Shown one piece after another: positions 55,387-61,028 of a stretch of DNA of 64,000 bases. The stretch spans positions 182,437 to 246,436 of the forward strand of contig JACJWR010000004.1 in NCBI GenBank assembly GCA_020637055.1. The letters run 5' to 3'. A program made the position numbers and the translations under genes. This DNA comes from Actinomycetota bacterium (lineage in GTDB: Bacteria > Actinomycetota > Actinomycetes > S36-B12 > UBA10799). The notes beneath the pieces were generated by a model, which ran no database searches, was not told the origin of the DNA, and saw nothing but the letters and a program-made list of their open reading frames with translations. The first letter of the stretch is position 1; each line of letters begins with the position of its first letter.

Positions 55387-56340
55387 ATGGCGAGGTCCGC
55401 CGATGTACCGGACCTGGTGAGTCGGGCGCGCAACGGAGAACCCCGGGCGGTCGCCCGACTCATCTCGATGGTCGAGGATTCCTCGCCGCAGTTGCGCGAG
55501 GTCGCCGCTACCCTCGCGCCGCACGTCGGCCGCGCGCACATCGTGGGGTTGACCGGTGCCCCCGGCGTGGGCAAGTCGACGACGACTTCCGCTTTGGTGG
55601 CGGCCTATCGCGCCGCGGGCAAGCGAGTCGGGGTGTTGGCGGTCGATCCGTCGTCGCCGTTCTCCGGGGGTGCGTTGCTTGGGGACCGGATCCGGATGCA
55701 GGAGCATGCGCTGGATCCGGATGTGTTCATCCGATCTATGGCATCGCGCGGGCACCTGGGGGGTTTGGCATGGTCGACCCCGCAGGCGCTGCGCGTCCTC
55801 GACGGGGCCGGATGCGACGTCATCCTGGTGGAAACCGTCGGAGTGGGCCAGTCTGAGGTCGAGGTGATCGGGGTCGCCGACACGGTGGTGGTGCTGCTGG
55901 CACCTGGCATGGGTGACGGGATCCAGGCCGCGAAGGCCGGAATCCTGGAGATCGGCGATGTTTTCGCAGTCAACAAGGCCGACCGCGACGGCGCGGACGC
56001 CACAGCTCGGGAGTTGCGCCACATGATCGGACTCGGCGAGCGGCTCGCGGGAGCCTGGCGGCCACCGGTGCTGAAGATGGTCGCCGCTCGGGGCGAGGGC
56101 ATCGACGAGTTGGTGGCGGCCATCGAGAAACATCGCCTGTGGGCCATTGAATCCGGTGCCGGGTTGGTGCGTCGCGAGCGGCGTGCGGCGGAGGAGATCG
56201 AGGCGCTGGCGGTGGAAGCCGTGCGGCGGCGATTGGTCGCCGATCCGGCCGTGCTCGGTGGTTTGGCTGCCGATGTGGCCGCCGGCCTGGAAGATCCCTA
56301 CCAGGCAGCCGATCGGTTGCTGGCGGCCGGCGGCGTCTGA
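55387..56340 (+). CDS. meaB: methylmalonyl-CoA-mutase-associated G-protein chaperone MeaB/ArgK
   Basis: 317 aa from ATG 55387 with the P-loop GAPGVGKST, a switch region (VDPSSPFSGGALLGDRIRM) and NKAD. Confidence 0.92.
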   Translation: MARSADVPDLVSRARNGEPRAVARLISMVEDSSPQLREVAATLAPHVGRAHIVGLTGAPGVGKSTTTSALVAAYRAAGKRVGVLAVDPSSPFSGGALLGDRIRMQEHALDPDVFIRSMASRGHLGGLAWSTPQALRVLDGAGCDVILVETVGVGQSEVEVIGVADTVVVLLAPGMGDGIQAAKAGILEIGDVFAVNKADRDGADATARELRHMIGLGERLAGAWRPPVLKMVAARGEGIDELVAAIEKHRLWAIESGAGLVRRERRAAEEIEALAVEAVRRRLVADPAVLGGLAADVAAGLEDPYQAADRLLAAGGV

Positions 56341-56468
56341 GGTCAGACGGGCCCATCGGAGGCGACCCAGATGGGTGAAACGCATCATCATGGTGATATC
56401 TCCAGTGTTGGGAAGGGAGCCTGCACCCGCGTTGGGCAGGCCAGCCCCGCGCAGGTATGGGGAAGTTC

Positions 56469-56509
56469 CATGGCAAGACCCCGCCAGCCACAACGGCTGC
56501 GGGGCTTCG
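56469..56509 (-). repeat. copy A of the 41-nt terminator-containing repeat
   Basis: catggcaaGaccccgccagccacaacggctgcgggGcttcg is 39/41 identical to 57661-57701. Confidence 0.9.
56479..56504 (-). terminator. hairpin terminator downstream of immunity-position ORF 2
   Basis: The minus strand reads ccccgcagcc-gttgt-ggctggcgggg followed by tcttgcc. It lies 23 nt after the TAG of the 56527-56769 ORF. Confidence 0.55.
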
Positions 56510-56526
56510 GGGAGGCGCTGCTGCGG

Positions 56527-56769
56527 CTAGGAAATGCCAGCTTCGTCGAGCAAGTAGCCGCGGCCAAGCCGGCGGAAACTGGCCGCCAAGTTCGGGGTCG
56601 GCTGGTTGGAGGCCAGCCAGGCCCTGATGGCCTTGTCCTGGGTGGCGACGTCCGCGTCCAGCACACCCAACCGGTGCACCAGGAACTGAAGCACCTGAGG
56701 CGGGCGTGGCGTGCCGTCGTATGGGACGCCGATCATGTCGTCTCTTAGTGCTGGCGAGAGTTTGGGCAT
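56527..56769 (-). CDS. small ORF in immunity position of orphan toxin module 2, function unknown
   Basis: 80 aa (MPKLSPALRDDMIGVPYDGTPRPPQVLQFLVHRLGVLDADV...). The ATG overlaps the TGA of the upstream toxin-like frame (TGATG), with ggagg upstream. A GTG start 3-9 nt upstream is possible. It is followed by a hairpin terminator, and its codon usage is less GC3-biased than the host genes. Confidence 0.4.
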   Translation of the reverse strand: MPKLSPALRDDMIGVPYDGTPRPPQVLQFLVHRLGVLDADVATQDKAIRAWLASNQPTPNLAASFRRLGRGYLLDEAGIS

Positions 56770-57487
56770 CACCACCACACCTCCACGTCAACCACCGGTA
56801 CATCACCAGAGTAGTCCGCCGGCCTGGCGATGAGGAGGTTTGCGTCCGCTGGCATGAGGATTTCGCCTTGGTAGCGCAATCGCGGATCGCCGACCCCTGC
56901 GACCCAGGCTGCTGGGGATGTCTCGCGCAGGCGCACGCGCATCAGCAGCGGCCGGCTGCCGGACGCAAACTCAGCCTCAGCGACCTTGCGCTTCAATGGT
57001 CGTAACCAACAGGGCCCTGGAGGCGGCGGAGCTCCCACGCTCGATGGACGATAACAACGTGGATCAGTTGCGCAGGCCGCGGAACAGAGTGACTCCGGGT
57101 GTGATCCGTCCGAACACGAACGCTTCAAGCACATCGTCTAGCCCGTCTGGGGCCTGATCGCTCAACCCGCGTAGGAATGCTGGATCTTCTCGTAGAACCG
57201 GTCGGTCTTCTGCCACTCCTTCAGCGCCGTGCGCTGGGCGCTTCGGTCAGGTCGCGCGCCCATTGCTCGAAGGCTGTGTCCATTGCGGCCATGGCGGGCG
57301 GCTCGACGGGCTCGGCCGGTGTCAGCAATGGACGGGTGGGGATGGCCCGCCGCTGGCGCCGCCGGTTTCCGCGACGGGCCTACCCGCGGCTACCGCTGGC
57401 TAGTTCCCGCGAGGTGCGCTTGCGGGTCGGGATGGTTGAGGCGCTTCAGTGACGCCGAGGTTGCGGTATTTGGACAGGTCGCAGCGG
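56769..57487 (-). pseudogene. orphan, multiply disrupted toxin C-terminal module (ADP-ribosyltransferase-like motifs)
   Basis: It starts with the 39-nt junction repeat (R-C-DLSKYRNLGVTE). Protein-like stretches then lie in three different frames, separated by stops: AFEQWARDLTEA / RTALKEWQKTDRFYEKIQHSYAG* / LSDQAPDGLDDVLEAFVFGRITPGVTLFRGLRN* / ...EFASGSRPLLMRVRL...LRYQGEILMPADANLLIAR...VVDVEVWW*. FRG, F-A-S-G-S and Q-G-E-ILMP resemble the R / S-x-S / (Q/E)-x-E triad of ARTs. Confidence 0.35.
57449..57487 (-). repeat. junction repeat, copy 2 (39 nt)
   Basis: gtgaCgccgaggttgcggtatttggacaggtcgCagcgg is 37/39 identical to 58533-58571. Confidence 0.9.
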
Positions 57488-57660
57488 GCGCCTGCGCGGG
57501 GATGCTGGCGCCAGCGGACTGGACGGGATCGACTGCGAAGGCCAGCCACGGGAGGCCGGCAGGGTGGCTGAATCGGATGGTCATGCGAGTTTCCCTCCGT
57601 CACGGGGGATAGACGACGTCCCCATCACGGGGACCGGACAAGCATGTGAAGACATGCGGT

Positions 57661-57701
57661 CATGGCAAAACCCCGCCAGCCACAACGGCTGCGGGACTTC
57701 G
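57661..57701 (-). repeat. copy B of the 41-nt terminator-containing repeat
   Basis: catggcaaAaccccgccagccacaacggctgcgggActtcg; see copy A. Confidence 0.9.
57671..57695 (-). terminator. hairpin terminator downstream of immunity-position ORF 1
   Basis: The minus strand reads cccgcagcc-gttgt-ggctggcgggg followed by ttttgcc. It lies about 20 nt after the TAG of the 57716-57979 ORF. Confidence 0.6.
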
Positions 57702-57715
57702 AGGTGTGGGGTCAG

Positions 57716-57979
57716 CTAGGCCAGCACCGGGTCGGTGCGGGAGATGCGGCGGCGGACTGCACTGGCGATGTCGCTCGGCGAGCGTTCAGGGTGGGTGTAG
57801 ATGGTGCCGATCCACGTGTCGTGTGCAGCTGCCGACTCGAACACAACGATGGCGACGTAGACACCTGCTTCGTCCTGGAACCAGAACTCGTCCGGGTCAC
57901 CCGTGGGCGTCATGCCATGGGCGGCGGCGAAGGCCTTGATATCGGCGGCCTGCACAGTCAACTGCGACGGCTTGTTCAC
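57716..57979 (-). CDS. small ORF in immunity position of toxin module 1, function unknown
   Basis: 87 aa from GTG 57979 (VNKPSQLTVQAADIKAFAAAHGMTPTGDPDEFWFQDEAGVYVAIVVFESAAAHDTWIGTIYTHPERS...). gggagg lies 6 nt upstream and the GTG overlaps the toxin-frame TGA (GTGA). GC3 is high and the frame is clean, and a terminator follows. Confidence 0.45.
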   Translation of the reverse strand: MNKPSQLTVQAADIKAFAAAHGMTPTGDPDEFWFQDEAGVYVAIVVFESAAAHDTWIGTIYTHPERSPSDIASAVRRRISRTDPVLA

Positions 57980-59006
57980 TGCGGGCCTCCCTTCACCCAG
58001 TAGCACCAATCCTCACCCTCAGTATGACCGATCAGTAGCACGTGGTCCACCCTGTCGCCACGACCATGGGAACCCATTGCACGCTCGAGTTTCAGCAAGA
58101 GTTGGTCGCGGGTCTGGTCCAGCACCTCGCGGCTATCGAAGATGACGACGTCTGCCTTCTCCGCGCCGTCTGCGAGCAGCTCGCTCCAGCGGGCCGCATT
58201 CGCGGACGTCGGCGTCTTCAGATCGACGGTGAGGCGAAGCGCATCCCAAACAGCGTCCGGTCGCCGCGATTCCCCGTGTGCCGCCTTCACGGAGCGCAGG
58301 AAGACGCCTGCTACACGGCGAAGGAATCTGGCGGCTGACTTCTCTTTCTCCAACTCGTAGAACTTGTCTGGCTTCCGCTTCGGAGCGACGTACTTGTGGC
58401 CCGCTGCAATTGGTTCCTCGTATCCGGGAGGTTCGGGGCTTCCCTCCGGCCGCTTGGCCCTGGCGGCGGCGTCTTGGATGCGGGCGACTTGGATAAGCCG
58501 TGGGGTGACCCATTCCAGTGGGGGGCGGGTCGGTGATGCCGAGGTTGCGGTATTTGGACAGGTCGTAGCGGTGTTCCCGGGCCTTGACCCGGTTGCTGAC
58601 GGTGCGTGCGGCGTCGGCGGGGTCGGTGCGGATGTCGGTGCGGCGGTCGAATCGTGTTTCCAGTTCGGCGCGGCACTTGCAGTGGCGGTGGTAGTTGGAC
58701 TTGCCGCGCGCGGTCTTCGCGGTGGTCTTCGACTTGTAGACGGCGCCGCGGGTGGCGAGCATGAGGCACCACGGGCAGGCGCCGGATTCGGGGACGCGGC
58801 GCCAGGCGGAGAAGCCCACAGTGTCAGCCGGCCAGGACGCGGTCGAGGGACACGTTGCGCATGGCCTCGTGGGCTTCGGTGCCGAAGATGCCGATTAGAT
58901 AGTTCAGCCCGTACACCATGGCCTCGGAGACGTCGACTCCTTGGCTGATGCGCCACAGCACGATGATCGGCGCCCGGCGCAGCGCGGGCGCGGCGGCCTC
59001 CGCGCC
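57976..59006 (-). pseudogene. 5'-truncated, frameshifted phage MuF-like (SPP1 gp7 / Mu F family) minor head protein fragment fused to a C-terminal PD-(D/E)xK-like toxin domain
   Basis: The sequence occupies three frames. (1) 59006-58827 gives ...APIIVLWRISQGVDVSEAMVYGLNYLIGIFGTEAHEAMRNVSLDRVLAG*. (2) 58819-58526 gives VGFSAWRRVPESGACPWCLMLATRGAVYKSKTTAKTARGKSNYHRHCKCRAELE...REHRYDLSKYRNLGITDPPP, where the CxxC...HxHCxC motif is one I associate with actinophage MuF-like proteins. (3) After a C6 run (58520-58525), a +1 frame gives LEWVTPRLIQ...PKRKPDKFYELEKEKSAARFL...ESRRPDAVWDALRLTVDLKTPTS...KADVVIFDSREV...WCYWVKGGPQ*. No start codon or upstream phage genes are present. Confidence 0.5.
58533..58571 (-). 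repeat. junction repeat, copy 1 (39 nt)
   Basis: gtgaTgccgaggttgcggtatttggacaggtcgTagcgg encodes RYDLSKYRNLGIT at the end of the MuF-like part. Confidence 0.9.
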
Positions 59007-59315
59007 TCAGCACACCCCATCAGTCTGTGTACCGTGGCCGAGTGCCGTGCACGCACAGTGCGGGATGCCCAAACCGTGGATGCGGCAGCCGTACCTTGAC
59101 GCAGCCCAGACGCTGTTTTCCGTGCGCATGCCGAGCAAGACCAAGTACATCGTCCGCCGAAGTGAACGAGCCGCGATGCACTTCAAGCGTCGCTGTGTGC
59201 GGGCGTGCAACGTCAACTCACACGATCGCGAGGCACCTCTGCGTCGACACTGGCGAGCAACCAGGGGGTGAACGGTCCCAAGGCACCCTCGACGGTCACG
59301 GACTACCCTGGGCCT

Positions 59316-61028
59316 ATGGATGCCGAGGAGATTGATCGCGGCCGGCAACGTTGGGCCCGCCGGTATGAAGAAGCGCGGACCCGTGGCCGGGTCCGGGATG
59401 CCGACTACACGACCCTCAGCGGGTTGGAAGTGGCGCCGGTCTACGGCCCGCCGGCCGGCACCGCGTATCCCGGCTTCGAGCGCATCGGTTGGCCGGGCGA
59501 GTACCCCTACACCCGCGGTCTGCACGCGACCGGCTACCGCGGCAAGACCTGGACGATCCGGCAGTTCGCCGGATTCGGCAACGCCCGCCAGACCAACGAG
59601 CGCTACCGGATGATCTTGGCCACCGGCGGCGACGGGCTGTCCGTGGCCTTCGACATGCCGACCCTCATGGGTCGGGATTCCGACGATCCGCTGGCCCTCG
59701 GCGAGGTCGGGCACTGCGGCGTCGCGATCGACTCCGCCGCCGACATGGACGTGCTGTTCGACGGAATCCCGCTCGGTGAGACGACGACCTCCATGACCAT
59801 CTCCGGCCCCGCGGTGCCGATCTTCTGCATGTACGTGGTGGCCGCCGAACGGCAAGGGTTCGCGCCCGCCCAACTCGACGGCACCCTGCAGACCGATATC
59901 TACAAGGAATACATCGCGCAGAAGGAGTGGCTGTTCGGCCCGGAGGCGCATCTGCGGCTGATCGGTGACCTGATGGCCTACGTGGATGCCGAGATGCCCA
60001 GGTACAAGCCGCTGAGCGTCTCCGGCTACCACATTCGGGAGGCCGGCGCGACGGCCGCACAGGAGTTGGCCTTCACCCTGGCCGATGGGTTCGCCTACGT
60101 GGAATTGGGGAAGTCCCGCGGATTGGACGTCGACTCGTTCGCCCCCGGACTGTCCTTCTTCTTCGACGCCCACGTCGACTTCTTCGAGGAGATCGCCAAG
60201 TTCCGCGCCGCCCGGCGCATCTGGGCGCGTTGGTTGCGCGACGTCTACGGCGCCACCGACGAACGGGCCATGTGGCTGCGATTCCACACCCAGACCGCCG
60301 GAGTTTCGCTCACCGGTGCCCAACCGTTCAACAACGTCGTCCGCACCGCCATCGAAGCGCTCGCCGGCGTGCTCGGCGGCACCAACTCGCTGCACACCAA
60401 CGCCCTCGATGAGGTCCTCGCCCTACCCACCGAACAAGCCGCCGAGATCGCGCTGCGGACCCAACAGGTGATCATGGCTGAGACCGGGGTGACGAACGTC
60501 GCGGATCCCCTGGGCGGGTCCTGGTACCTCGAGGCGCTGACGGATCGAATCGAGGCCGAAGCCGAGGAGATCTTCGCGAAGATCCTGAAGATGGGTGGCG
60601 GCACCGAAGGTGTCACGCACCCGATCGGGCCGATGACCGCAGGAATCCTGCGCGGCATCGAAGACGGCTGGTTCACCGGTGAGATCGCCGATTCGTCGTT
60701 CGCTTTCCAGCAGGCGATCGAGGATGGCCGCAAGCACCAGGTGGGCGTCACCGTCCAGACCGACACCGTCACCGAGCCGCTGGAGATCCTGCGGATCAGT
60801 CACGAGGTGGAGCGGGCGCAGGTCCAGCAACTCGCCAGCCGGCGGCTGGCGCGGAACGAGGAGGGGGTGCAGTCGGCGCTGATGCGACTGACGCACGCCG
60901 CCGCCTACACCGACGACAACCTGGTGCCGGCCATCCTGGATGCAGCCCGGGCCGAGGCGACGCTGGGCGAGATCTGCGGCGTGCTGCGCGACGTGTGGGG
61001 CGAATACCGCGAACCCGCTCGGATCTGA
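59316..61028 (+). CDS. icmA: B12-dependent acyl-CoA mutase large (catalytic) subunit, isobutyryl-CoA mutase (IcmA)-like, with no cobalamin-binding domain
   Basis: 570 aa from ATG 59316. The mutase TIM barrel has TIRQFAGFG and TDIYKEYIAQKEWLF, i.e. the Phe/Gln variants described for ICM at the positions of Tyr89/Arg207 of P. shermanii MCM. The product ends after the barrel and linker, with no DxHxxG domain. Confidence 0.82.
   Translation: MDAEEIDRGRQRWARRYEEARTRGRVRDADYTTLSGLEVAPVYGPPAGTAYPGFERIGWPGEYPYTRGLHATGYRGKTWTIRQFAGFGNARQTNERYRMILATGGDGLSVAFDMPTLMGRDSDDPLALGEVGHCGVAIDSAADMDVLFDGIPLGETTTSMTISGPAVPIFCMYVVAAERQGFAPAQLDGTLQTDIYKEYIAQKEWLFGPEAHLRLIGDLMAYVDAEMPRYKPLSVSGYHIREAGATAAQELAFTLADGFAYVELGKSRGLDVDSFAPGLSFFFDAHVDFFEEIAKFRAARRIWARWLRDVYGATDERAMWLRFHTQTAGVSLTGAQPFNNVVRTAIEALAGVLGGTNSLHTNALDEVLALPTEQAAEIALRTQQVIMAETGVTNVADPLGGSWYLEALTDRIEAEAEEIFAKILKMGGGTEGVTHPIGPMTAGILRGIEDGWFTGEIADSSFAFQQAIEDGRKHQVGVTVQTDTVTEPLEILRISHEVERAQVQQLASRRLARNEEGVQSALMRLTHAAAYTDDNLVPAILDAARAEATLGEICGVLRDVWGEYREPARI

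Follow-up and report, generated by a model that had tools for sequence, protein, structure and literature searches.

A probable phage MuF toxin relic with a displaced orphan cassette between meaB and an acyl-CoA mutase gene of an actinomycete

Why should about 3 kb of minus-strand DNA part meaB, which encodes a chaperone of acyl-CoA mutases, from the gene for an acyl-CoA mutase large subunit ('icmA') in the 64,000-nt stretch of actinomycete chromosome analysed here (the window), and what did that DNA once encode? An earlier reading, made from the bare letters (the sequence-only reading), had interpreted it as a MuF-toxin locus of phage origin, now decayed, with a main toxin/immunity module and an orphan one, and our analysis sustains that view: the block at 56341-59299 is very probably a head-morphogenesis relic of siphovirus-type actinophages, consisting of a MuF polymorphic toxin locus and a displaced orphan cassette. 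This is carried by the correspondence of the VG15 domain of its head-protein part to the MuF4 family, by the predicted fold of its first toxin domain (CT1), by the homology of its second toxin and small partner gene to gp14 and gp15 of a Gordonia phage, and by a metagenomic allele, L179, in which the second toxin is fused to the MuF part.

The MuF part and its two genes

Read on the minus strand, the block opens with the 3' remnant of a gene that we call MuF4-N (58824-59016), comprising about 60 of 156 codons and the stop codon TGA at 58826-58824; its product is 90% identical in amino acid sequence to the C-terminal third of the 156-aa homologue P0004. The first ~93 codons are missing, and DNA homology to the related metagenomic locus L087 starts at 59016, which is codon ~94 of 156. 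The product of 59016-58524 matches the Pfam family VG15 (PF25310) at E=7e-19, as well as phrog_193, and tblastn with this MuF part retrieved genes of cluster-F-type mycobacteriophages and of a Gordonia phage, some of them labelled 'MuF-like minor capsid protein' or 'capsid maturation protease and MuF-like fusion protein' and most of them 'capsid/head maturation protease'. The window's MuF part does not match PF04233, the MuF1 family. MuF4, the fourth MuF family, was defined from gp4 of mycobacteriophage Angel and has homology to MuF1 and MuF2 in comparisons of hidden Markov models (Jamet et al., 2017, PMC5576092). Angel gp4, the MuF4 seed, matches PF25310 at 5e-32 over nearly the whole model; VG15 therefore corresponds to MuF4, and the label 'MuF' is justified. 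The open reading frame (ORF) directly after gp4 in Angel, gp5 (L189:6189-6395), matches the Pfam family RMF (ribosome modulation factor) at E=2e-10, which is unexpected at an immunity position.

The MuF4-N reading ends with ...NVSLDRVLAG and its TGA, and a GTG at 58819, four bases on, opens the next reading, MGFSAWRRVPESGACPWCLMLATRGAVY, which we call MuF4-C. The sequence-only reading had described a 5'-truncated and frameshifted MuF fragment; the truncation stands, but the frameshift does not, as the same change of frame is a conserved gene split in intact phages. The boundary between N-part and C-part recurs in diverged relatives (47-90% identity), namely L087, L095/L096 and L190, all short-read assemblies, and in the IMG/VR phage contigs L099-L103. 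At this boundary, the relatives have an N-part of 152-159 aa and a C-part that starts M-x-[FW]-[SEK]-x-W-R-R, with overlapping or adjacent start, and full-length N-part genes of that size directly precede the C-part gene in L099-L103 and L190. The same family also occurs as one fused gene (P0007, P0008 and L104-L106). The frame change at 58824/58819 is therefore the native boundary of two translationally coupled genes rather than decay; we found no description of a conserved two-gene split of MuF4. In one 38-kb phage contig, L090 (8209-9553 and 10001-11003), the portal is called in pieces, with two SPP1_portal ORFs and an unannotated ORF between them, and a Gln_amidase toxin forms a separate ORF after MuF4-C; these breaks are probably indel errors of long reads, which makes the contig poor evidence for or against splits.

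The damage to this first locus thus consists of the 5' truncation of MuF4-N and a single +1 frameshift in a run of six cytosines (C6, 58520-58525, sequence GACCCGCCCCCCACTGG), which lies between MuF4-C and CT1 at the end of the junction homology described below. Between the window and L179, MuF4-C (58819-58526) has a ratio of non-synonymous to synonymous substitution rates (dN/dS) of ~1.15 (7 non-synonymous and 2 synonymous changes), and between the window and L087 a ratio of 0.34; the counts are tiny, and the first ratio is consistent with relaxed constraint in a relic.

It could be argued that the frameshifts and stops of the block are sequencing or assembly errors in an intact locus, given that one lesion lies in a homopolymer and that the closest genome is a long-read metagenome-assembled genome. 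All lesions recur at 100% identity in independent public assemblies (L081-L083, L091-L094) from at least five sequencing runs, and the second toxin domain carries two base-substitution stops and a 2-nt insertion, which are not homopolymer errors. We regard the error explanation as barely credible.

Two toxin/immunity cassettes and their exchange

The first toxin gene, MuF4-C::CT1, runs from the GTG at 58819 to 57976 on the minus strand and joins a zinc-ribbon-like VG15 part (C..C...H..C.C), a junction motif and a PD-(D/E)xK domain, with the +1 frameshift between them. Past the junction motif, frame 1 turns into low-complexity junk, and frame 2 holds a clean domain of 182 codons with no further stop. 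With five cytosines instead of six, the sequence would read DPPPLEWVTPRL, as in the homologue P0010 (..DPPLPAWVTPRL..); over a longer stretch, the reading is ...LGITDPPPLEWVTPRLIQ... against ...LGVTDPPLPAWVTPRLVE... in P0010. This homologue is an intact protein of 265 aa, 53% identical, that reads through the junction.

An exhaustive HMMER search with CT1 found 16 relatives. The domain lies C-terminal to VG15 in P0011 and P0022 and C-terminal to Phage_min_cap2/MuF2 in P0018. Two distant relatives, P0018 (32.2 bits) and P0020 (31.8 bits), score above the threshold of the Pfam family CdiA_C (PF18451), and the window's CT1 scores 14.4 bits (E=0.045), below the cut-off of 26.6. The sequence-only reading had noticed a PD-(D/E)xK-like motif in this C-terminal extension, and the family alignment supports it: E61, S78 and K103 are invariant and P89 and D90 are conserved in at least 90% of 14 members, which is the PD-(D/E)xK signature. 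An AlphaFold (AF2) model built from that alignment reached a predicted local distance difference test score (pLDDT) of 86, and its one match in the PDB at E<=1e-3 by Foldseek was 4g6v_A, the CdiA-CT of Burkholderia pseudomallei 1026b (E=9.9e-4, probability 1.00, 119 columns; template-modelling scores of 0.46 by query and 0.60 by target length). On the strength of this model, CT1 is predicted to have the PD-(D/E)xK nuclease fold of that CdiA-CT. The family profile itself gave nothing meaningful against PDB sequences, so that this link comes from the fold comparison; tblastn with CT1 against the phage collection and a word-indexed protein search gave no match either. Among viral models (BFVD), the best fold match of CT1 is a MuF-like fusion protein of Mycobacterium phage MalagasyRose (A0A5J6TGH5, E=8e-6), followed by several 'minor capsid proteins' and one 'tRNA nuclease CdiA C-terminal domain' protein. 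As a side observation, a CT1-like nuclease domain (residues 65-211) is combined with Ribosomal_L32e (E=3e-27, residues 23-101) in the 212-aa relative P0013, which may reflect either a chimeric gene call or the insertion of a toxin cassette into an archaeal-type ribosomal protein gene.

It is conceivable that the nuclease is still made, by programmed +1 frameshifting or transcriptional slippage at C6, and that the locus works as a chromosomal toxin-antitoxin (addiction) module. The lesion is single, lies in a homopolymer exactly at the domain boundary and is followed by a frame free of stops for 182 codons; moreover, the nearest relative has a VapBC-type toxin-antitoxin pair in the same interval, and in L179 an intact toxin persists at this truncated locus. 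The intact homologues P0010, P0011 and P0022, however, need no frameshift, no slippery site or stimulatory structure is known here, and C6 is fixed in all four independent assemblies, so that we consider a frameshifted nuclease very unlikely.

Downstream of CT1 lies Imm1 (57716-57979, minus strand), an intact ORF of 87 aa and putative immunity protein of the nuclease toxin, whose GTG at 57979 overlaps the toxin's TGA (57978-57976) as GTGA. A homologue of Imm1 follows the intact toxin homologue P0010 in L095/L096. Searches of Pfam, phrog, NCBIfam and PADLOC found no family match for Imm1, and CT1, Imm2 and the second toxin domain likewise gave nothing in NCBIfam and PADLOC.

The second module begins at a second copy of the junction sequence. 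Copy 1 (..RYDLSKYRNLGIT..; 58524-58571, minus strand) spans 48 nt and is 90% identical to copy 2 (..DLSKYRNLGVT..; 57440-57487, minus strand), which represents the 3' end of a MuF4-C coding region and heads the orphan module; the two share an identical 27-nt core, and 100 shuffles produced no chance match of this kind. What follows copy 2 is a pseudogene, linker and domain, of a toxin resembling ADP-ribosyltransferases (ART; 56769-57439, minus strand), matching phrog_34890 at E=7e-11. The ~670 bp after the junction correspond to positions 501-676 of 679 in that family, and tblastn matched the C-termini of MuF-like/ADP-ribosyltransferase (VIP2-like) fusions of Gordonia phages (33% identity, 98% coverage, E=1e-9). 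Here the sequence-only reading had described a second junction copy followed by an ART-like, badly disrupted domain, and this description proved accurate, the domain being spread over three minus-strand frames. Compared with the intact L179 copy, the lesions are a CAG>TAG change at 57402-57400, a -1 shift at ~57342, a +2 shift at ~57241, a -1 shift at ~57180, a TGG>TGA change at 57066-57064 and an indel cluster at 57038-56993 (net +1), which makes two nonsense codons and at least four frameshifts in a gene that has no start codon of its own.

Of the R / S-T-S / E-x-E (or Q-x-E) signature of ADP-ribosyltransferases, the ART sequence shows (F/Y)RG in 'TLFRGLRN' and Q-x-E in 'RYQGEILMP', aligned with 'AYRGVRN' and 'RYQRELLLP' of gp14 of the Gordonia phage Savbucketdawg, and the S-T-S position falls in the most diverged and damaged patch. 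We treat membership of the ART family as likely, although the Pfam threshold is not reached: the window's conceptual product has no match to PF03496 at E<=1. Imm2 (56527-56769, minus strand), an intact ORF of 80 aa and putative immunity protein of the ART-like toxin, starts with an ATG at 56769 that overlaps the TGA of the ART frame (56771-56769); the overlaps of small-ORF starts with toxin-frame stops that had been noticed earlier are thus real for both genes. Imm2 matches phrog_21251 (E=5e-8, positions 6-73 of 75) and is 37% identical to gp15 (61 aa), which directly follows the MuF-ART gene gp14 of Savbucketdawg; the exact Imm2 protein occurs on seven public contigs.

Each immunity gene is followed by a hairpin. 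Copy 1, after Imm1, lies at 57661-57704 (stem-loop 57671-57695) and copy 2, terminator-like and after Imm2, at 56469-56512 (stem-loop 56479-56503), both on the minus strand; the 44-nt copies are 93% identical, and 100 shuffles again yielded no chance match. The hairpin is also kept after unrelated immunity genes in L087 and L084. The sequence-only reading had taken these as two near-identical terminators, of which the repeat itself stands, but the element only starts a longer flank and its folding energy is not special (-27 kcal/mol and z=-0.7 for copy 2). Behind copy 1 comes a first stub (57480-57660, minus strand) with a leader, a ribosome-binding site (GGAGGG) and 35 codons from an ATG at 57584 (MTIRFSHPAGLPWLAF...), broken off at junction copy 2. 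Its DNA is 82.7% identical to the stretch after the immunity gene of L087, where the ORF MTIRITYPQSRPWLAH... runs for at least 82 aa and contains KPNDKRVLADLA, as does the scaffold-position gene of L097; the N-terminal motif of the stub also heads a 188-aa scaffold-position gene in L190, directly before the capsid-position gene. These 35 codons are therefore read as a scaffold-gene stub, because the equivalents in L190, L102 and L097 occupy the scaffold position. A second stub (56341-56468, minus strand), with a leader and the first ~8-17 codons from an ATG at 56391 (MMMRFTHL...), is cut off at the meaB stop, and the stretch 56475-56341 aligns with the leader and start of the L190 scaffold gene (MQIRYTHPRPWL..., 188 aa). 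Stub 1 and stub 2 show no significant DNA similarity, and searches of IMG/VR with a scaffold-start DNA pattern and with a junction pattern gave no match. Each module thus has its own hairpin and scaffold start, from two different phage lineages. What had looked like a repeated 'terminator' opens a longer stretch of conserved 3' flank, which runs from the hairpin over the leader into the 5' codons of the scaffold gene and forms a second recombination arm.

The gene order of intact relatives shows where these pieces belong: portal, MuF4-N (~155 aa), MuF4-C with a variable toxin, a small immunity gene, hairpin, scaffold and capsid. L190 has terminase, portal, an N-part of 159 aa, a C-part of 199 aa, the 188-aa gene, whose product is a coiled-coil protein, and a 295-aa gene in capsid position, for whose product a Pfam search gave no family match. 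L102 and L097 share this order, with weak DUF4355 matches. In L090, L097 and L099-L103, the C-terminal domain is Gln_amidase, ART, DUF3626 or another one, and in each case a small ORF comes next. That the locus was never part of a phage, being instead a chromosomal polymorphic-toxin islet with a borrowed VG15-like domain, would agree with the lack of an upstream portal in both the window and L087, and with the way the L087 locus abuts a truncated ABC-ATPase gene. The start of a scaffold gene, however, follows the immunity gene in both of them, and all longer contigs with a split VG15 are phage head modules, which leaves an origin outside phages highly improbable. In L087 (367-866), 4 nt lie between the locus and a preceding MacB-type ABC ATPase gene, which breaks off at about residue 142; this would be a second, independent case of a locus without a portal gene upstream.

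How a MuF toxin locus acquired two modules is best seen by setting the window beside L087 and L179. L087 is intact: its N-part of 156 aa is followed by a 351-aa fusion of MuF4-C to an HExxH-metallopeptidase-like toxin, and this by an immunity gene of 86 aa. Aligned with the window, L087 shows 87% DNA identity as far as 58523, no relation across the genes for toxin and immunity, and 83% identity once more from 5 nt past the Imm1 stop, through the hairpin and into the ORF MTIRITYPQSRPWLAH... there. Identity that breaks sharply at the junction and again just past the immunity stop is the mark of cassette exchange between conserved arms. L179, found by a junction-motif pattern search of metagenomes, has 741 nt that are 97.3% identical to window 59264-58524 and then passes across the 48-nt junction into the ART module (window 57487-56691); a single unbroken ORF of 321 codons, with an ART extension of ~220 aa, spans everything from MuF4-C over the junction and linker to the ART, and Imm2 follows. 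L179 shares the truncated MuF4-N and 248 bp of spacer found otherwise in the window alone; its contig ends 36 nt before the chromosomal homology, so that its position beside icmA is inferred. Since L179 holds an in-frame MuF4-C::ART together with this unique left flank, the nuclease cassette would have come later and displaced the ART module.

We therefore propose an earlier state like that of L179, a relic with truncated MuF4-N and in-frame MuF4-C::ART followed by Imm2. A related phage may then have donated about 1.04-1.08 kb carrying the nuclease toxin, Imm1, the hairpin and the 5' end of the scaffold gene, with the left crossover in MuF4-C or the junction. The right join would have been illegitimate, a CCGCT(G/A)CGAC microhomology bringing scaffold codon 35 against the junction's 5' edge, and the ART cassette, pushed downstream without a start codon, would then have decayed. 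L084 and L180, which represent another strain, show the end of ART, Imm2, the hairpin, the same joint of scaffold stub and junction, and the beginning of a further ART-type unit that an insertion sequence interrupts, an arrangement that indicates unequal recombination among units. In both contigs (L084:694-944, L180:330-1816), the C-terminus of an rve-type transposase lies on the opposite strand right after '..PSSAPRGN*'.

Several results weigh against this reconstruction and the assignments under it. The identity of L179 to the window is a mosaic (junction 92%, N-terminal half of ART 89%, C-terminal half 61-69%, end of ART and start of Imm2 96%), and because ART is only 61-89% identical where the left flank reaches 97%, L179 is a cousin allele and not the direct ancestor. 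Its intact ART stays below the Pfam threshold for PF03496 (13.1 bits, E=0.058, model positions 7-173 of 196), as does gp14 of Savbucketdawg (22.4 bits at a cut-off of 23.4). The VG15 profile, set against a sequence of MuF1 (PF04233) with hhalign, gave no significant alignment, the hairpins do not exceed shuffled sequence in stability and have no strong U tract, and the Imm1 model, at a pLDDT of 62, is too poor for a fold search. The window itself, over its full 64 kb, holds no portal, terminase, capsid, integrase or attachment (att) site, so that the prophage origin rests on homology and on relatives and not on local context.

The chromosomal setting

Apart from the block, the window is a high-GC actinomycete chromosome with core genes that include rho, prfA, the ATP synthase operon, murA, nucS, ccr and a thiolase gene, and with one tRNA gene. 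The left flank, meaB (55387-56340, plus strand), encodes the G3E GTPase chaperone of acyl-CoA mutases (TIGR00750 at 338 bits, curated cut-off 240.75), and the right flank, icmA (59316-61028, plus strand), encodes the 570-aa large subunit (TIGR00641 at 663 bits). The closest relative in the genome collection, L001, is an uncultured Actinomycetes metagenome-assembled genome whose meaB is 92% identical. DNA homology to L001 extends to the last base of the meaB stop codon, 56340, and restarts at 59300, and because homology breaks at these two points, the lineage-specific block can be set at 56341-59299, 2.96 kb on the minus strand, in agreement with the ~3 kb minus-strand accessory insert that the sequence-only reading had outlined between meaB and icmA.

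A comparison of this interval among related genomes, which that reading had put forward as a check, also speaks for an insertion: four more distant genomes (L003, L006, L007 and L017) have only 91-178 bp between meaB and the mutase gene, and L001 holds a different accessory set of 4.4 kb (L001:8949-13293) that is not the MuF block. This set comprises a PIN (VapC) and MazE/AbrB-type antitoxin pair, an ABM-like ORF, an iron-type alcohol dehydrogenase-like ORF and a family-less ORF of 310 aa, with the Pfam check covering PIN and MazE. In still more distant lineages, the interval holds native genes, such as one for a MarR-type regulator. We considered whether the interval is a general hotspot for mobile elements and rejected this, since distant relatives keep native genes there and a hotspot would fit the nearest relative alone. 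An att or target-site duplication was likewise rejected, the sole flank repeat (56317-56336 and 59332-59351, 80% identical) lying inside coding sequence and looking like chance. The sequence-only reading had stated that no other phage gene, integrase or att repeat lies in the window; integrase, att site, portal and capsid were indeed not found, but the two 5' stubs of scaffold genes had been overlooked.

Beside the mutase start lies a spacer of 283 bp (59017-59299) with a slightly lower GC content of ~0.64-0.66. By tblastx against all fetched loci, it is matched by L179 alone, at 99% identity; it has no Rfam match, no Pfam match in its translations and no match in L001 or L087. As the insert parts the mutase gene from meaB, this spacer might now supply the mutase promoter. 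The whole insert has no match by blastn in the phage collection and none in Rfam. The GC content at third codon positions is 0.73-0.75 in the two toxin domains, 0.92 in MuF4-C and 0.81-0.90 in core genes, so that the weaker third-position bias described earlier for the insert applies to the toxin domains but not to MuF4-C.

Immunity genes and known systems

The locus is presumably no longer able to produce either toxin or, lacking portal and capsid, to deliver one. Of the genes in the block, only Imm1 and Imm2 are complete; as had been noticed from the letters, they are its sole clean frames, both intact and full length relative to their homologues. In an intact phage, the toxin would ride in the capsid with MuF and enter the next host with the DNA, a hypothesis put forward by Jamet et al. 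(2017, PMC5576092). It is possible, though we hold it only tentatively, that Imm1 and Imm2 are expressed and protect the cell from matching toxins of incoming phages. The whole block may, on the other hand, be inert junk with nothing expressed or selected, its immunity ORFs intact only because, being short, they have so far escaped damage, and we give this an even chance. On our own estimate, ~7 lesions in ~1.5 kb of toxin DNA would lead one to expect ~2.3 in the 507 bp of immunity genes, and the probability of none at a uniform rate is ~0.1; this is not significant, which makes the intact frames weak evidence for retention and a further point against selected immunity in the relic. The MuF4-C ratio of ~1.15 against L179 points the same way, as does a promoter/terminator consensus scan of the insert that found nothing, although its sigma-70 model is ill suited to actinomycetes. 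What stands against inert junk, besides the full length of both immunity genes, is a widespread Imm1 homologue, P0026, which is 85% identical, occurs in 35 blocks of the collection's index (24 contigs were read) and has a dN/dS of 0.47 (14 non-synonymous and 9 synonymous changes). It sits on an integrative element of ~8 kb (L181-L188, e.g. L181:6133-6529), with no more of the toxin gene in front of it than the final 33 codons; two integrases (tyrosine-recombinase genes), WhiB, HTH_17, HTH_36 and DUF6907 lie on the same element, which has 397 bp in common with window 58080-57686 at 90.7% identity. Because P0026 travels with only a toxin stub, and at this dN/dS, retained or acquired immunity is a live possibility. 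The claim that immunity was retained after toxin decay is thus plausible in the light of the toxin-less P0026, but the window alone, at P ~0.1, does not establish it.

The locus is a further member of a published class, that of MuF polymorphic toxins, and not a new kind of system. Like its members (Jamet et al., 2017, PMC5576092), it combines a MuF4 domain, a variable C-terminal toxin and a small downstream ORF, and its sizes agree with those of the class: the CT1 extension has 182 aa, against at least 100 aa, and Imm1 and Imm2, at 87 and 80 aa, lie below 150 aa. No portal lies upstream in the window, as one does in the relatives L190, L090 and L102; because the portal holds this position in the relatives and not in the window, we file the window copy as a relic of a MuF locus. 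It differs from the published class in that its MuF4 is split into two coupled genes, in being a relic and in its downstream orphan cassette. We found no description of such a cassette with defined arms for MuF toxins: the main text of PMC5576092 uses neither 'orphan' nor 'recombination', and none of the papers retrieved by a full-text literature search bears the terms in its title or abstract.

Both toxin folds are already known as fusions to MuF-like proteins in cultured actinophages, MalagasyRose on the one hand and Wizardvirus-type Gordonia phages on the other. The fusion protein of MalagasyRose ('capsid maturation protease and MuF-like fusion protein') is the best viral fold match of CT1, and a MuF-nuclease fusion of the CT1 fold therefore exists in a cultured phage; unlike a close homologue, it is only 16% identical to CT1, and no match was found in the phage collection at the level of sequence. 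Savbucketdawg, a Wizardvirus, encodes as gp14 a 'capsid maturation protease and VIP2-like ADP-ribosyltransferase toxin', to which the window's ART shows 41% identity across the final 76 aa; for the domain as a whole, identity to sister phages is 33%. Toxin and immunity genes stand in the same order, gp14 followed by gp15. In contrast to the window, gp14 unites MuF1 (PF04233, Phage_Mu_F) and ADPrib_exo_Tox in one protein of 675 aa, and the window copy is a pseudogene behind a MuF4-type junction. As for CdiA-CT(II) of B. pseudomallei 1026b (4g6v, PF18451), a PD-(D/E)xK tRNA nuclease, CT1 shares its fold and E...PD...(D/E)xK motif but is only 13% identical to it, and Imm1 has no sequence match to CdiI, its model being too poor for a fold comparison as well.

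Loci of the CdiA and Rhs type reportedly carry orphan C-terminal toxin (CT)/immunity modules (Poole et al., 2011, cited in PMC5576092). The orphan module in the window resembles these: the toxin tip lies downstream without start codon or promoter, behind a short copy of the pre-toxin region and ahead of its own immunity gene, and the sister allele L179 bears the same tip on its main gene, with a left flank 97.3% identical. The orphan copy is preceded by scaffold-gene codons in another frame and by no delivery domain, as in the orphan modules of contact-dependent inhibition and Rhs loci. Unlike in those systems, a phage head protein takes the place of a secretion substrate as delivery domain, YDLSKYRNLG(I/V)T marks the boundary instead of VENN or PxxxxDPxGL, and the 3' arm consists of the hairpin and scaffold start. 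The logic of a polymorphic toxin locus with orphan CT/immunity modules, for which the sequence-only reading had invoked CdiA, Rhs and the MuF class, is borne out by the 48-nt junction copy, by Imm2 and by the L179 fusion.

MuF toxins are a widespread and barely tested class, and how they diversify is not known to have been described. The locus and its metagenomic alleles present the displacement of a toxin/immunity cassette resolved to the base pair, with the 48-nt junction and the hairpin plus scaffold start as arms, and they show that immunity genes can outlive their toxins and travel without them. Two toxin/immunity pairs are on offer, a CdiA-CT-like nuclease with Imm1 and a VIP2-like ART with Imm2. 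Two cautions follow for annotation: in this lineage, a change of frame within a MuF-like gene should be taken as a true boundary between two genes, and when a small 'hypothetical' ORF lies among housekeeping genes, it may encode an orphan immunity protein. Perhaps, and this is a speculation we would rate as unlikely, chromosomal MuF-toxin relics act as immunity banks, their toxin-less genes blunting injected toxins, and as cassette reservoirs for superinfecting phages, exchanged via the YDLSKYRNLG junction and the hairpin/scaffold arms. The allelic series (a single unit in L179, a displaced one in the window and an extra unit cut by an insertion sequence in L084/L180) and the cargo of Imm1 with a toxin stub in L181-L188 are compatible with this; if true, it would extend the logic of orphan immunity and cassette displacement from contact-dependent and Rhs systems to toxins delivered by phages.

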